A stretch of 33,826 nucleotides of DNA, taken from a virus (taxonomy: Duplodnaviria; Heunggongvirae; Uroviricota; Caudoviricetes). Shown one piece after another: positions 3,178 through 33,826 of the stretch. Every line of letters starts with the position of its first letter. The first letter of the stretch is position 1. A program made the position numbers and the translations under genes. The stretch spans positions 1 to 33,826 of IMG/VR virus record IMGVR_UViG_2690316318_000017. One strand, 5' to 3'. Below the pieces are notes generated by a model that had not been told where the DNA came from, did no database searches, and was given only the letters and a program-made list of their open reading frames with translations.

Positions 3178-4385
3178 TTCTCCCAGACCTTAACAATGGC
3201 GACCTCTTTTTTCTTTTTGCCCCTGCGGTTATGGCGTTTCTTCTCGCGCGGGAAGGCATCAGGTATCCACACGCCGTCCTCCTTAAAGCGGAGCCGGGTT
3301 GTCTGCCCGTTCCGGCCTCCGCTGAACTCACGCCCCATCAGGAAAAAGATGGCATCAATGCCGTGGAGTTCGCTGACAATCCGCACCCGCTGGCCGGGCT
3401 GCCACAGAACACCATCTGCCGTGCGATGACCTGCAACCAGCGCGACGATATCCAGCCCCGACAGGCGGGCATCACTCATCATTTTTTTTGCGCGCCAGTT
3501 CACCTGCTCCAGATTGCTGGTGTCGCCCTGGGTGATTATCTGCGGGCGGTAATAATCCACGGTGGGGTCGGTGGCAACGGCTTTCATGTTATGAATGCCT
3601 GTCTGGCCACTGTCCGTATTACCGCTGTCCTGCCCGGACAATGTGCGCACGCTGCCGTCCTCGTTCCAGATATCCAGCGGCACCACGGCCACCTGTTTCT
3701 TGCTGTCTGCGCGGCGGGCGTGGCTCTGGGCCAGCACAGTAAGTTCGGAGAAACAGCCGTTAATGGACCGGGTATCGTCCAGCTCCATCACGTTGTTCCC
3801 GGTGCCGTTCAGCTTCAGAATCAGCGTATCCACCGGCGTGGTGGTGTAGTCAGGGCCACCCACAACCAGCGTCCCGTCAGGCTCAAACCACGGCCATAAG
3901 CCGCGACCGGCGGCAGCTTTGGCCAGTGCATCCCACGCACGCATCCCAGGCTCAATAACAACTTTGTCATTACGTGACACACCGGACGCCTGTATACGGA
4001 TGCGCTGTATCCCCAGTGGTCTGACTATCCTGTCGATGACCTCGTCCAGCGTCAGCTGATTGGCGCTGAACACCGGCGCGGCACAGTCCACCAGAATGGC
4101 AGCATCATCACGCCCGGACAGGGCCAGCGTGCAGCTCTGACGGGACACACTGCGGCGCACGCTGTCTATGCGCCCACTGAGCACCGTTTCGTCTCCCACC
4201 TGCAACCGGATTTGTGCGCCCCGGACGATATCCGCCGGGAACACCTTTTCAGGCAGCCCCAGCTGAAGCTGCCAGCCGTCGGCAGCTTTCAGGAAATCGC
4301 TGTCAATACGATAACTGCTCCAGTCAGAATGCGACCTTCCGGCAATGACCAGGCTAATTTTGTCTTCGTTATTTGGCGTAGGCAT
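3174..4385 (-). CDS. Baseplate hub protein, late-control-D (gpD)-like (Mu gp44/P-like)
   Basis: 403 aa ORF, 4-nt overlap with downstream gene, position after the N-like gene. Confidence 0.55.
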   Translation of the reverse strand: MPTPNNEDKISLVIAGRSHSDWSSYRIDSDFLKAADGWQLQLGLPEKVFPADIVRGAQIRLQVGDETVLSGRIDSVRRSVSRQSCTLALSGRDDAAILVDCAAPVFSANQLTLDEVIDRIVRPLGIQRIRIQASGVSRNDKVVIEPGMRAWDALAKAAAGRGLWPWFEPDGTLVVGGPDYTTTPVDTLILKLNGTGNNVMELDDTRSINGCFSELTVLAQSHARRADSKKQVAVVPLDIWNEDGSVRTLSGQDSGNTDSGQTGIHNMKAVATDPTVDYYRPQIITQGDTSNLEQVNWRAKKMMSDARLSGLDIVALVAGHRTADGVLWQPGQRVRIVSELHGIDAIFFLMGREFSGGRNGQTTRLRFKEDGVWIPDAFPREKKRHNRRGKKKKEVAIVKVWEK

Positions 4386-28751: not shown

Positions 28752-28991
28752 TTATTGCCATACGACGGTGCAGCCGTCGATACAGGACGTTTTAACCACA
28801 CGACGCAGGCCGCTGAATGTCTGGATGATTTCCGTTATCGGCCATACAGGACCGCCCACGGGCGGGCAGGCATAAACCACAGGTAAACGGTGATGTTGCC
28901 CAGTTACGCGACCGCCGGTGGTGTGGATGGCTACACGGGCACGGGAACGGACGGCGTTAATGGTCTGCTTGTCCATCGTCTTGTTCTCCAT
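28752..28991 (-). CDS. Hypothetical small protein immediately downstream of B (kil-like position)
   Basis: 79 aa ORF whose start overlaps the B stop codon. Confidence 0.3.
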   Translation of the reverse strand: MENKTMDKQTINAVRSRARVAIHTTGGRVTGQHHRLPVVYACPPVGGPVWPITEIIQTFSGLRRVVKTSCIDGCTVVWQ

Positions 28992-29884
28992 CAGTGAATT
29001 AACATTTCTGAATATTTATCAATGACCTGCACACTGACCGGTGCATCGCTGATATCACAAATCCGGTACACACCGCGCGCCAGCTTGAACAGACGACGGG
29101 CATTGCCCAGCGAACGTGTGTAAAGTGCCTCACCAATTTCCGGGTCTGCCGCTTCCGGCATCATGTCTGTGGCAATCTTGTTAAAATCTTCCTGCGTCAG
29201 CGTATCGCCCAGGTTAAGCGCCAGCGCCACGCGGCTGTATAATTGAGCGAACTCACCACAACGGCCCTTAAGGTTAATCAGAAGGTGAGGCATACCCGCC
29301 AGGACAATCCCGATACCCGCTTTGTCATGCAGACGGCGCAATACCTCCAGTGCACGATAGGGAAGCAGTTCAGCCTCATCCACCATCAGCAGACGACCTG
29401 ACCCACGCAGTTCACGCACACAGGCATCAATCTTCTCGCGAATATCGCCGTGAACCTTTATACCCAGCTGACGGCACAGTTCATCGAGTAACTTTCTGGC
29501 CGTATAGCCAATATCGGCTTCAATGAGCACTACATCCCGGTTTCTGGCAGCATACTCACTCAGAATCATGCTTTTACCCAGACCCGCCGCGCCATACAGC
29601 ACGCAAATATCACACTCCAGATGGGCGTAGGTCAGCACCTCCAGCCCTTTGGCGGCCATGCCGGTGGTGACAAATCGCACTTTAATACGGCGGTTGTTTT
29701 CCTTTTCCCATTCACGGGTCACAAAGGCAGAAATGCGTTCTTCAATATCAGCCATATCGCCCTGATATTTACCCTGCAAATACTGGTTAATAACGGCGCT
29801 GCTACGACCAATAGCACGGGCAACGTGGGTCTGCGTAAAGCCGCGACGGGCCATTACGTCATTTAATTGCGTAATTAAACTCAT
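28991..29884 (-). CDS. B: Transposition ATPase, MuB-like
   Basis: 297 aa; N-terminal HTH-like region then Walker A (GAAGLGKS) and Walker B-like (LLMVDEAE) motifs; directly downstream of the transposase. Confidence 0.8.
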   Translation of the reverse strand: MSLITQLNDVMARRGFTQTHVARAIGRSSAVINQYLQGKYQGDMADIEERISAFVTREWEKENNRRIKVRFVTTGMAAKGLEVLTYAHLECDICVLYGAAGLGKSMILSEYAARNRDVVLIEADIGYTARKLLDELCRQLGIKVHGDIREKIDACVRELRGSGRLLMVDEAELLPYRALEVLRRLHDKAGIGIVLAGMPHLLINLKGRCGEFAQLYSRVALALNLGDTLTQEDFNKIATDMMPEAADPEIGEALYTRSLGNARRLFKLARGVYRICDISDAPVSVQVIDKYSEMLIH

Positions 29885-29902: not shown

Positions 29903-31978
29903 TTAACGATTATTTGTGCCGTTTTTCTTTAAATTGCGCTCACGGTCAGACACGAATAAATAAAGTTCTTCTTTTTCCTTTTTCTCCTGGCGTTCCAGTC
30001 CATATCCCAGATTAAAGTCAGGCTTCTGCGTAATAGCCGGGGTAAGCTCGCGTTTAGCCTCTTCGATTTTCTGCGTGGCCCGTGCAATGCGGCCTCTGGC
30101 GCGTTTCTCCTGCTGCTGTTCGATAACAGCTTTCGGGAACGCATCAACCTTATTACCGTTCCAGATGGCATCGCAGATATAAGAGCCATCAGCCCGCCGG
30201 ACAATGACGCTGTTTGCATCATGAATATCGTAACTGACCCTGACTTCATTCCCGTGCTCTGCGGCCAGCTCATACGAGTAATAAATATTGTTGAATAACT
30301 GAATTTCCCCGCGAAATGTTTTGCGCGTCACTTCCGGCCTGAACATTTCATGCAGTTCTTCCTGCGACAGAAAATCAATTTCAACATTCTGCTCTTTTAT
30401 CAGTTTCCGGCGATACGCTGCCGGGCTGTAATATTCGCCATCCTCTTTGCGGGGAAGGCTGCTGTGTGGCCGGTTGTTATAGCGTCTGACCTCCAGCTCT
30501 ATGGCGGCCATCAGTTGCTCAAAGGTAGGGATTTCATCCCTCGCCTTAACCTGCCGTTTTGTCAGCTCTTTCCCTTTGTGGGTGGCCTTAATGGCTGACT
30601 GTGTGATGCGTTGCTGCATCATCACCGTTTCCTTGTCTGCATTTTTTGAGCAGTACGTCTGGAAACTCAGAGCCACATCTTTGGGTATTCCTTTGTTTGC
30701 TCGTTCTATTACCCCGCGCCCCTGCGGGTTACCAGGTATCCCCGTGTGATGCTCCACACCCAGCCGGGGCAGAATCCCGGTAATATCGGCATCAAGTACC
30801 TGGTTTTTTTCACCGCCCCCGTTATCGGAGTAATAAATCAGCGGTATTCCGTGCTGTGCCATGCCGTAACGTAATGCATCAGCAACGGCTATCACGTTTT
30901 CCGACAGGGACAGGGACCAGCCCACAACAAAGCGCTGCCCCGCATCCATAACCAGCGTCACTTCTGGCCGGAAAATATTGCCGGTCAGGGGGTTAAACGC
31001 GGTCATTTTCATACAATGACCATCCCCGACCCATACCGCATTAACCGGTAATGATGTCCACTCGCGCCGCACAAAGGGATTGAGCGAACGCCAGGCTGAA
31101 CCTGTGGAGCGGAAACGCTCCTTAACAATCACCGGGACGCTGCTTAACACCCGTCTTACTGCGTGAACTGAAGGCAGTGCCGCCAGCATTCCCGCATCGT
31201 TCGCGTGTTTTTCATGCCACCAGGCTGAAAACTCGCGATACGCATATTCAACGGTCGGTCGCTTCCATGAGCGATAGAACATAAAGAAATCGCTCAACCA
31301 CCAGACCTGCTCCCACGGTGTCCCCTTATGATGACCGGGAGCCAGTAACGCCAGTAACTGATTGGCATCACCGCGCGCCATCACCCAGCTGGAGTACCAG
31401 CTATCCAGGCTGCCGGTGCTGACACCGGTTCGCTTTCCCTGACGTGCATTTGCAGTATTAGCTGCTTCGATAATGCGGTCAGGTAACGCCCCCATGCGCA
31501 CACCATCAACGATGTGCTTTAACGCGGCCTTCCTGGTCATTCCGGCGTATTCACGCAGTTTATGCACTTCAGTAGCCAGCAATATCCGCGCATCAGCGAT
31601 GGCCTTTTGCTTGTCGGTCAGTGCCTGGACTTCGCGTAATGCCAGTTCAGGGCATTTGACCATCACTTCAAGTTCATCGCGAATGGTGACGTTCTTAACT
31701 GCCTTCTGCTCAACCACAACGGGCAGTTGCGTATCTTCCAGGACCTGATGGGTCAGGCGTTGACGTAAAACCTTCTGAACATCTTTAGGTAAACTGGATA
31801 TATGGTACTCATATATTTTCCCCTGAACTCCAGACTTCCTTCTTCTTGTCCAGTTCGCTCGTTTAGCTTTTTGAGTGATCCCCTGTACAGTTTTCGGTAG
31901 CCCTTGAAGCCCTGTTAGTTCATTCAACGTAAACCATTCAGGTTCGAACTTGACTTCATAGTCGTTGTTCTTATTCAT
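29903..31978 (-). CDS. A: DDE transposase, MuA-like
   Basis: 691 aa; N-terminal DNA-binding domain paralogous to the repressor N-terminus; central core with acidic residues (VWVGDGHCMKM... and IYYSDNGGGEKN) consistent with a DDE/RNase H-fold catalytic domain. Confidence 0.9.
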   Translation of the reverse strand: MNKNNDYEVKFEPEWFTLNELTGLQGLPKTVQGITQKAKRANWTRRRKSGVQGKIYEYHISSLPKDVQKVLRQRLTHQVLEDTQLPVVVEQKAVKNVTIRDELEVMVKCPELALREVQALTDKQKAIADARILLATEVHKLREYAGMTRKAALKHIVDGVRMGALPDRIIEAANTANARQGKRTGVSTGSLDSWYSSWVMARGDANQLLALLAPGHHKGTPWEQVWWLSDFFMFYRSWKRPTVEYAYREFSAWWHEKHANDAGMLAALPSVHAVRRVLSSVPVIVKERFRSTGSAWRSLNPFVRREWTSLPVNAVWVGDGHCMKMTAFNPLTGNIFRPEVTLVMDAGQRFVVGWSLSLSENVIAVADALRYGMAQHGIPLIYYSDNGGGEKNQVLDADITGILPRLGVEHHTGIPGNPQGRGVIERANKGIPKDVALSFQTYCSKNADKETVMMQQRITQSAIKATHKGKELTKRQVKARDEIPTFEQLMAAIELEVRRYNNRPHSSLPRKEDGEYYSPAAYRRKLIKEQNVEIDFLSQEELHEMFRPEVTRKTFRGEIQLFNNIYYSYELAAEHGNEVRVSYDIHDANSVIVRRADGSYICDAIWNGNKVDAFPKAVIEQQQEKRARGRIARATQKIEEAKRELTPAITQKPDFNLGYGLERQEKKEKEELYLFVSDRERNLKKNGTNNR

Positions 31979-32174
31979 AACGTGATGGCCAAATTTCTTC
32001 TGGCTTTTTACCGATCACACTAGCGACAATCATTTCTGCTTTGGGCCATTTTGTACGTAGAACATTACCCAAACTTCTTGATTTCATTCCATGCTCTCGT
32101 GAAAGCCGACTAAAGTTTGTTCCTTTCTTTTCTAGTTCCGCCTTGATATCTGACGGATGCATATCTTGTCTCAC
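31971..32174 (-). CDS. ner: Ner-like DNA-binding early regulator
   Basis: Conserved Ner/Nlp pattern KKGTNFSRLSREHG...WPKAEMIVASVIGKKPEEIWPSRY; listed start is GTG, ATG 4 codons in is likely; overlaps the transposase start. Confidence 0.8.
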   Translation of the reverse strand: MRQDMHPSDIKAELEKKGTNFSRLSREHGMKSRSLGNVLRTKWPKAEMIVASVIGKKPEEIWPSRYE

Positions 32175-32420
32175 GTCTCTACCTCTTCACATAAATCAAC
32201 AGATATGAGATCTTGAGTGATTACTCGCATGTGTACGCGATTGAGTTACTCACCTGCGTGAAGAATACTAGATTTAAACAATGTTTAAGTCAACACGTTT
32301 AAATCTATGTTTAAAACATTTTAGCAAGCAGGTTGCTTATCGTTTTGTTTTTGAAGTAATTTTTGCGTTTTAAACAAAAGCTCTATTTCATGCTCTTTTG
32401 TTTAAATCTAAGGGGTTAGA
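32175..32420. promoter_or_regulatory. Divergent early/repressor promoter-operator region
   Basis: 246 bp AT-rich intergenic region between divergent ner and repressor genes with five TTTAAA cores and an exact 11-bp direct repeat GTTTAAATCTA at about 32297 and 32400. Confidence 0.6.
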
Positions 32421-32999
32421 ATGAAACAAGAATGGGTTGCCGCAAAAGACCTGGTAGGGCTTCATGGTTTACCTGCCACAATTCAGGGAATTCACCAAAA
32501 AGCCAAAAGGGGCGGATGGCGCAAAGAGAAAAGAATTACACCTGGTGTGAAGGGACATCAGGTATACTTCTACTTGCCTGATTTGCCTGAAAAAATACGC
32601 TGCTCCTTGGTGTCGAAAGACGGAGAAACTCCAGTGAGGAATGATTTAAACAAAGGGTTGATATCAATACTGGAAATGACATCCGCAGAAGATCAATTCA
32701 ATCTTTTTCGCGCTTTGTGTGAATTTGGCATCAAAGGAGTCCTAGAACACCTACAACAACCCACCAGGCAAGCTACGCAGGCCGACAGCGACCAGGACGA
32801 ACAGGAGAATGCCATCAGAAGCCTAAACATCAGGGAATCGCTTAAAGATGTTATATGTATGGCTCTAGATGGTAATGAAGAAACCGACAAAGAGATTTTG
32901 CGACGCATCGAATCTCGTGCACGGGCTGGGTCGCCAGGTGGTCAGACCGTTGCCACGCCGGAGCAAGAAACGAAGCCTGTAAACAAGAAATCAGCATAA
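32421..32999 (+). CDS. c: Mu-type repressor (c-like)
   Basis: 192 aa, only phage ORF on plus strand, divergent from ner-A-B; N-terminal 60 aa is paralogous to the transposase N-terminus (shared Mu operator/enhancer-binding domain); RBS AAGGGG. Confidence 0.6.
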   Translation: MKQEWVAAKDLVGLHGLPATIQGIHQKAKRGGWRKEKRITPGVKGHQVYFYLPDLPEKIRCSLVSKDGETPVRNDLNKGLISILEMTSAEDQFNLFRALCEFGIKGVLEHLQQPTRQATQADSDQDEQENAIRSLNIRESLKDVICMALDGNEETDKEILRRIESRARAGSPGGQTVATPEQETKPVNKKSA

Positions 33000-33160
33000 G
33001 CGCCTCGTTTTGGCGGGGCGTGTGCTGTTAGCTAATCAGCAATAACCACAACAAAACCGAACACAACAGATGAGAACAAATTGAGGAAAACGGGCAAGGA
33101 TAAAACACTTTTTAAAAGCATTTAAAACCCGTTAAGTTTGTAGCAGAACCAGATCAAAAG

Positions 33161-33303
33161 CGCCCAGAAATGAGCGCAAAAAAAAGCGTTTTTGGTCATT
33201 TCTCACAAATCCGCCCAGAATCACACTAAATCACCACACCCCGCGCCACACAAGGCTTGCAGGTTCTACCAGGCTGCACGAACTCCGCCCAGAATTGATC
33301 ACT
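33161..33303. repeat. Three putative transposase-binding end repeats (L1-L3-like)
   Basis: CGCCCAGAA-containing ~20-bp motifs at about 33161, 33212 and 33287, the last ending about 10 bp from the prophage terminus ...CCCCACA. Confidence 0.55.
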
Positions 33304-33311
33304 ACCCCACA

Positions 33312-33826
33312 TTGTCCTTGCTTATAAAACGAAGGATGACCGTTTCATTCAGATTTGTATGCCCGTTTATGACGCTTACTATCCGAAGTTTATTAGCTGT
33401 ATTGGCCGCCCTGATCTGGCCGGAGATGAACGCTATACCCGTTTGCAGGAAGTGGCGAAACATATGCGGTCTCCCGAAGTTTACGACATCATTTGGCAAC
33501 AAATAGAACAAAAAACTGCCAGCGAATGGCGGGAGATCCTGATTGAAAATGATATTCCGTTCAGTGTGGCGCAAACGTGGGAAGAAGTTCTACAGGACGA
33601 GCAGGCGTGGGCAATTGATGTATTTTATTCCATGAAATATGCCAATGGCAGTGAGAAGGCGTTGGTACGCCCCCCCATTTCGCTGCGTGAATGTGGTCTG
33701 CCGGATTATTTGCGAGCACCGCTGTTAGGGGAAAATACGCCGCAAATTTTGCGCGACCTCGGGTACAGCGAAGCGGAAATTACCCAACTTGAAGCTGATA
33801 ACGATATTGCTGTCTGGCGTGACTGA
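33312..33826 (+). pseudogene. Host family-III (CaiB/BaiF-type) CoA-transferase gene, 3' fragment interrupted by the prophage
   Basis: Frame containing ORF 33359..33826 is open upstream to about 33299 and encodes ...IVLAYKTKDDRFIQIC...IGRPDLAGDERY..., a family-III CoA-transferase pattern; it stops inside the phage end repeats, so only the C-terminal ~170 aa are present. Confidence 0.65.

Follow-up and report, generated by a model that had tools for sequence, protein, structure and literature searches.

Among described systems, the control regions of the transposable phages Mu and D108 are closest to the locus analyzed here. [quoted passage not shown] Similarity between the N termini of repressor and transposase is established for both Mu and D108, according to the two works listed as references 51 and 52 in PMC3820752, and the pattern by which the two phages differ is named in the title of a 1986 paper by Mizuuchi, Weisberg, and Mizuuchi cited in the same article. 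The block that is swapped between these two phages, which are elsewhere almost identical, comprises the transposase N terminus, ner, the operator, and the repressor N terminus. Details of Mu O1-O3, of Pe and Pc, and of the D108 Ner site are taken here from reviews, from reference titles, and from direct reading of the Mu and D108 sequences. The boxes of D108 adjoin c, and a palindrome, which we take to be the D108 Ner site, adjoins ner.

The window, by which we mean the whole stretch of 33,826 nucleotides, contains a Mu-like transposable prophage in reverse orientation, and positions 32175 to 32420 are its lysis/lysogeny control region. As in Mu, the genes run from the left end through c to a divergent ner-A-B unit. 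The repressor gene (32421-32999, plus strand), which encodes a Mu-type protein of 192 amino acids (aa), is the rightmost of the mapped prophage genes; it is outermost at the left end, reads towards that end, and is divergent from the ner-like gene (31971-32174, minus strand; 67 aa), the MuA-like transposase gene (29903-31978, minus strand; 691 aa), and, downstream of the transposase, a gene for a MuB-like AAA ATPase (28991-29884, minus strand). In RefSeq relatives, ner and the repressor are annotated with limits identical to those in the window. The stop of ner and the start of the transposase overlap by 8 nt (31971-31978), which fits translational coupling in an early operon.

The left (c-proximal) end of the prophage (33161-33311, plus strand) carries three direct CGCCCAGAAW repeats, unlike the end repeats of Mu, and terminates in CCCCACA at 33311. 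The repeats, at 33161, 33212, and 33286, fall within the final 150 bp before the prophage end and are probably the sites at which the transposase binds this end, as counterparts of L1-L3. A palindrome that was flagged as terminator-like by a scan contains the innermost repeat. The end was placed at 33311, the position at which similarity to the window is lost in every relative used, these being integrated at five different loci of E. coli (next to yigF, in alx, in ycgB, in an RHS gene, and next to melR); the other prophage end was not located within the window. The flank (33312-33826) encodes only the C-terminal third (profile positions 247 to 366) of a family III CoA-transferase, indicating that this gene was interrupted by the prophage. 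Because the flank had no match among 5,426 complete E. coli genomes, the host is ascribed to another species. A DNA search with 31900-33330 against 50,697 phage records likewise returned no match, indicating that no characterized phage carries this control region.

The regulatory spacer between the divergent ner and repressor genes spans 246 bp (32175-32420), as opposed to 169 bp in Mu, and has a G+C content of 33%, as opposed to 53.5% across the window. All five of the TTTAAA cores counted by the initial annotation were located (at 32273, 32298, 32310, 32369, and 32401). The two copies of an 11-bp repeat, GTTTAAATCTA, that it had placed about 103 bp apart are exact, in direct orientation, and separated by 103 bp (32297-32307 and 32400-32410), and the second indeed abuts the repressor ribosome-binding site, AAGGGG. 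Its count of this repeat was incomplete, in that a third exact copy lies inverted at 32269-32279, accompanied by two copies with 2 mismatches. The proposal that the whole 246-bp region is an operator stands for the two clusters of boxes described below but not for the ner-proximal 90 bp, where another pair of repeats occurs that is probably the Ner operator.

As a test of these repeat frequencies, the AT-rich spacer itself was shuffled 5,000 times with dinucleotide composition preserved. Only 1 of the 5,000 shuffles reached five TTTAAA cores (shuffle mean, 0.51), and only 6 contained any 11-mer in at least three copies. Some 11-mer was present twice in 13% of shuffles, so a two-copy repeat alone is not significant.

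The repeats resolve into six 10-bp boxes with the consensus TGTTTAAAWC, arranged in two clusters about 100 bp apart. Cluster A (32269-32319) comprises S1 (TGTTTAAATC; 32271-32280, minus strand), which lies in the inverted exact 11-mer; S2 (TGTTTAAGTC; 32282-32291, plus strand), which together with S1 forms a near-palindrome; S3 (CGTTTAAATC; 32296-32305, plus strand), at the exact 11-mer copy that begins at 32297; and S4 (TGTTTAAAAC; 32308-32317, plus strand), the last of this cluster. Cluster B (32365-32410) begins with S6 (TGTTTAAAAC; 32367-32376, minus strand), which pairs with the flank of S7 in an inverted repeat of 12 nt, and ends with S7 (TGTTTAAATC; 32399-32408, plus strand), at the 11-mer copy that directly precedes AAGGGG. 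Exact matches to TGTTTAAAWC number five in the 33.8-kb window, all within 32271-32652. When a single mismatch to GTTTAAAWC is allowed, there are eight matches in the spacer (representing six sites), as opposed to the 0.29 expected from local shuffles, and none of 2,000 shuffles reached this number.

Two further elements resemble the boxes. A conserved TTGTTTT block (32345-32351, plus strand) within the otherwise divergent spacer between the clusters represents either a seventh box that has degenerated or the core of a weak site resembling that of IHF. An extra exact box (TGTTTAAATC; 32643-32652, minus strand) occurs 235 bp downstream of S7, within the repressor coding sequence; the E. coli relatives retain it and Salmonella has a degenerate form (GGTTTAAACT), and it could be either a distal operator or a coincidence.

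The same cassette is carried by three E. coli chromosomes (L001, L006, and L002), by an IMG/VR contig (L012), and by a metagenome contig (L013), this last being an L001-type copy and the only one returned by the metagenome scan. It is also present in a Salmonella enterica prophage (L007/L008) whose repressor is 59% identical to that of the window. Further carriers are a short contig (L009; repressor 50% identical) and two more distant ones from an exhaustive protein search that gave 122 representative homologues, L016 (domain 46% identical) and L014 (domain 60% identical). Nothing was retrieved by a word-index protein search that used only the 70-residue domain or by two scans of repressor peptides against one-genome-per-species contigs.

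Comparison with related prophages had been set as a test that could refute the initial annotation, and the repeats proved to be conserved in both sequence and position wherever related repressors were found. Across five sequences (the window, three E. coli/IMG-VR variants, and the Salmonella prophage), 9 of 60 box columns are variable, as opposed to 51 of 86 neighboring non-box columns (P = 6.5e-8, Fisher exact test), with part of this conservation attributable to shared ancestry among relatives that are few and partly close (89 to 94% DNA identity). The spacer between the clusters is almost randomized in L002, L012, and L007. Distances from the boxes to the repressor ATG are 150, 138, 124, 112, 54, and 21 bp in the window; 149, 137, 123, 111, 54, and 22 bp in Salmonella; and 149, 112, 54, and 21 bp in L016, whose DNA-binding domain is 46% identical. 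In the short contig L009, TGTTTAAATC directly precedes the repressor ribosome-binding site.

The spacer contains a predicted early promoter resembling Pe (32265-32293, minus strand; TTGACT, 17 nt, TAGTAT) that is directed at ner-A-B, with a predicted transcript start at about 32258 on the minus strand. This element is the sole consensus promoter match in the spacer, the best sigma-70 candidate, and the one with the top PWM score (11.1), and it has an equivalent in position in all five aligned spacer variants scored with the PWM. Box S2 overlaps its -35 element, S1 lies within the promoter spacer, and the 11-mer at 32269-32279 extends over 2 bp of the -10 element.

A promoter for the repressor gene was sought in the spacer by both consensus and PWM scans, and none was found that was convincing and conserved. 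The candidates TTGAGT-17-AATACT, TTTAAG-16-TATGTT, and TTGCGT-17-TTTCAT are weak or unconserved, and none is claimed as the repressor promoter. The second of these is the best positionally conserved candidate (PWM score, 6.6); no conserved c-directed promoter scored above 6.6 to 8.7, and no equivalent of O3 or Pc of Mu was identified. Between the clusters, the IHF consensus WATCAANNNNTTR has a perfect match in Mu and a match with one mismatch at the equivalent place in L002 and L007, whereas no match with one or fewer mismatches occurs in the window, L001, or L012, leaving no clear IHF site here.

The repressor and the transposase of this prophage begin with related DNA-binding domains, as had been claimed from their N-terminal sequences, which were quoted correctly. 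When aligned, the repressor and its own transposase N terminus are 37% identical over 76 residues (E = 1e-12), and both match PF02316 (HTH_Tnp_Mu_1), with the repressor scoring 34 bits over residues 10 to 72 and the transposase 61.5 bits against a gathering cutoff of 23.3. The winged-helix DNA-binding domain of the repressor occupies approximately residues 1 to 70 (32421-32630), and the paralogous region of the transposase occupies residues 14 to 76 (31751-31939). A single-sequence query of the PDB with the repressor retrieved MuA domain I-alpha (1TNS; E = 7e-7) and the DNA-binding domain of the Mu repressor (1G4D; E = 4e-5). Paralogous winged helices at the two N termini are a feature shared with Mu. 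A PDB profile search with alignment A2 was discarded as circular, in that A2 contains Mu sequences. The winged-helix domains here are about 29 to 33% identical to those of Mu. By tblastn, 29% identity to a Mu-type repressor was limited to residues 3 to 108, a stretch that gives no clear sign of the oligomerization/ClpXP-sensitive C-terminal domain of Mu c. Against the phage collection, the best transposase matches are 40 to 47% identical (in Pseudomonas, Klebsiella, Yersinia, Mannheimia, and Haemophilus phages), and the top matches listed do not include Mu.

The residues that are most group-specific lie in an 18-residue segment, G-L-P...W, that we call the recognition segment. Repressor and transposase of one phage agree at 13 of these 18 positions in the window, 12 in the Salmonella prophage, 10 in Mu, and 13 in D108, as opposed to 4 to 10 positions held in common across groups; a group-specific segment common to both proteins is thus a feature that this prophage shares with D108. 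The signature of the present group, T[IV]QGIxQKAKR, is invariant in repressors that are just 50 to 59% identical overall, and in a third lineage, L016, it is present in both repressor and transposase.

The rest of the repressor, a C-terminal half that starts at about residue 98, has a different distribution. It is 53 to 85% identical to that of many E. coli and Salmonella prophage repressors (P0004-P0071), in which the N-terminal fold is of another kind, either CI-type PF07022 or PF01381 (HTH_3). A common C-terminal half with differing N termini indicates that one and the same oligomerization/regulatory module occurs with DNA-binding domains of at least three kinds. Among homologues P0074, P0075, and P0077, some have two tandem Mu-type winged helices. 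P0074 (281 aa) ends in an apparent S24/LexA-type peptidase motif, GDSMQP, suggesting that it may be an SOS-cleavable version of this repressor type.

The DNA-binding determinants are contained in what appears as an exchangeable immunity cassette (31778-32711), consisting of transposase residues 1 to 67, ner, the spacer, and repressor residues 1 to 97. The cassette has no DNA counterpart in sibling prophages, which match both sides of it at 89 to 96% DNA identity (on one side the transposase from residue 68 and B, on the other the repressor's C-terminal half and the left end). The window differs from its siblings in the same block as D108 differs from Mu. In the Mu/D108 swap, however, the alternative is another winged helix, whereas here it is an unrelated CI-type helix-turn-helix domain (PF07022 or PF01381). 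In the E. coli/Salmonella siblings L003-L005, whose backbone is alike, the repressor domain is of the PF07022 type and unrelated to the sibling's own transposase N terminus, and the spacer is without TGTTTAAAWC. Among the 59 E. coli genomes that matched the query, 56 did so only in the C-terminal half of the repressor and the left end; in the three of these siblings that were examined, the transposase beyond the swapped 67 residues was likewise shared (89 to 96% DNA identity; protein about 97% identical). The winged-helix cassette is therefore the rare immunity type, occurring in 3 of 59 backbone-carrying E. coli genomes, the rest of which carry CI-type cassettes.

Between the predicted Pe start and ner lies a candidate Ner operator (32220-32262), composed of two 18-bp imperfect palindromes, ATTACTCGCATGTGTACG (32220-32237) and GTTACTCACCTGCGTGAA (32245-32262), that are 25 nt apart. 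The Salmonella relative has clean palindromes at this place, GTTACACG-CA-CGTGTAAC and GTTACTCG-AT-CGTGTAAC, spaced at 26 nt, and in a sibling cassette 18-bp palindromes spaced at 26 nt lie directly upstream of ner, as GTTATCCG-TG-CGGATAAC and a weaker second copy. These paired palindromes upstream of ner are probably Ner operators with a conserved geometry. Pairs of 18-bp palindromes at intervals of 25 to 26 nt precede ner in three cassettes (the window, L007 at 3798-3841, and L003 at 2484-2527), and the half-sites read GTTACNCG or GTTATCCG. The Ner protein itself matches PF13693 (HTH_35) with 89.2 bits against a cutoff of 25, and is 43 to 45% identical to the Ner proteins of Mu and D108, 89% identical to that of the Salmonella relative, and 45% identical to the homologue in the sibling cassette.

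The organization of the locus is best explained, with a probability of roughly 0.75, as an operator/promoter switch in which the boxes would bind the repressor, cluster A would cover Pe, the transposase would probably use the same boxes as an enhancer, and the palindromes at 32220-32262 would form the probable Ner operator. These assignments are based on position, conservation, and homology, from which we infer the binding partners, the looping, and the enhancer role. The winged-helix domain of the 192-aa repressor most likely binds the six TGTTTAAAWC boxes. Occupancy of S1 and S2 by the repressor would cover the -35 element, the spacer, and the edge of the -10 element of the early promoter, and with this promoter covered, ner, transposase A, and B would be off. 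Oligomerization through the C-terminal half of the repressor may bridge clusters A and B over the variable spacer of about 50 bp, and the location of cluster B at the repressor ribosome-binding site would allow possible autoregulation. The N-terminal domain of the transposase would use the same boxes as a transpositional enhancer situated 0.90 to 1.04 kb from the left end, with repressor and transposase competing for them as in Mu. Ner would act separately, at its palindrome pair downstream of the promoter start.

The part of this scheme that concerns the transposase faces the strongest competing explanation, in which the boxes are repressor operators only, the transposase domain either recognizes something else or has no enhancer here, and the domain shared by the two proteins reflects common descent. 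Evidence on this point comes from an integrase-type prophage (L014 [GCA_024410215.1, 2568-4864] and L015), which has a PF02316 repressor, a divergent ner homologue, and GTTTAAAWC boxes beside a tyrosine integrase (PF24624 plus PF00589). The Mu transposase is absent from its usual A position after ner in this prophage, and yet the boxes persist there in the two-cluster layout. The boxes are therefore an operator at minimum, and an enhancer role is not what maintains them in L014; the gene set of L014/L015 also indicates that a Mu-style c/ner switch occurs in a non-transposable prophage. An operator-only function is also consistent with the siblings, in which a PF07022 repressor unrelated to the transposase N terminus shows that shared-domain competition is not obligatory in the lineage, and with the 5 of 18 positions at which repressor and transposase of the window differ in the recognition segment. 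In transposable members, however, the N-terminal 67 residues of the transposase are swapped along with the operator while the remainder of the protein stays nearly constant, and the QGIxQKAKR core is kept in both proteins across three diverged lineages. Moreover, the boxes lie 903 to 1,040 bp from the left end at 33311, equaling the distance in Mu (891 to 1,028 bp). An operator-only function is hence judged improbable. Because the transposase has a paralogous domain with nearly the same recognition segment, the boxes of the window probably double as a transpositional enhancer, a role suggested by this paralogy, by the co-swapped transposase residues 1 to 67, and by the distance from the end.

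An assignment of the boxes to Ner, with the repressor binding the palindromes at 32220-32262 or elsewhere, is less probable still. Ner and the boxes are conserved together in all relatives, the integrase-type prophage included, and among cassette carriers, in which both repressor and Ner are conserved, covariation cannot separate their sites. The CI-type siblings do separate them: they have a Ner homologue (45% identical) and palindromes of the same geometry, together with a different repressor fold and no TGTTTAAAWC boxes in their spacers, indicating that palindromes follow Ner and boxes follow the PF02316-type repressor. The order of elements in D108 is identical, with boxes by c and a palindrome by ner, and two clusters that cover a promoter and reach the start of c correspond to the O1/O2 pattern of Mu. 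That the repeats are due to chance or to the composition of AT-rich promoter DNA (UP-element-like, curved, or targets of H-NS, Fis, or IHF) is very improbable: the spacer is 67% A+T and a twofold 11-mer is frequent in its shuffles, but three exact 11-mers and five TTTAAA cores are each attained in about 0.1% of local shuffles or fewer, no more than one near-match to the boxes occurs in the spacers of Mu, D108, and the sibling cassette, which are just as AT-rich, and box positions are kept to the base pair while the AT-rich flanks diverge.

Returning to the switch in which repressor and transposase would share the boxes, its specificity is set apart from those of the known phages. The early-promoter cluster (predicted here) and the second cluster of repeats about 100 bp away are common to Mu and this prophage, but the box sequence is TGTTTAAAWC here and CTTTTNAGTA in Mu, and both the GAAATCA-like boxes of D108 and its recognition segment, ATNITRKA, are unlike those of the window. 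The view that the operator differs from that of Mu is thus borne out, both by the near absence of these boxes from the Mu spacer and by the different boxes of Mu itself. The suggestion of a distinct immunity specificity agrees with the boxes being unlike those of Mu and D108 and missing from the heteroimmune siblings. As judged from the boxes, the locus belongs to a distinct specificity group and is predicted not to have Mu or D108 immunity. The system forms its own specificity class within the well-known Mu/D108 operator/enhancer type, and its design is ordinary and would not surprise a specialist. A broader interpretation, which we hold as tentative and somewhat doubtful, is that the T[IV]QGIHQKAK winged helix and the GTTTAAAWC array constitute a third, uncharacterized Mu-type specificity class, encoded on a portable 0.9-kb cassette that alternates with CI-type cassettes in one backbone and also occurs in an integrase-type prophage.

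These results provide a predicted operator map for uncharacterized enterobacterial Mu-like prophages, consisting of six boxes, an early promoter, and a Ner site. Conceptually the map repeats what is known from Mu and D108, and the advance is incremental. Prophages with TGTTTAAAWC boxes and the QGIHQKAK segment should be mutually homoimmune and heteroimmune to the commoner CI-type siblings, which could be of use in prophage annotation, in predicting superinfection exclusion, and wherever an orthogonal repressor/operator or transposase/enhancer pair of the Mu type is wanted. If the broader interpretation as a third class is true, the natural swaps would test whether competition between repressor and transposase at the enhancer matters for the lysogeny of transposable phages or persists as a dispensable relic of a duplicated domain.
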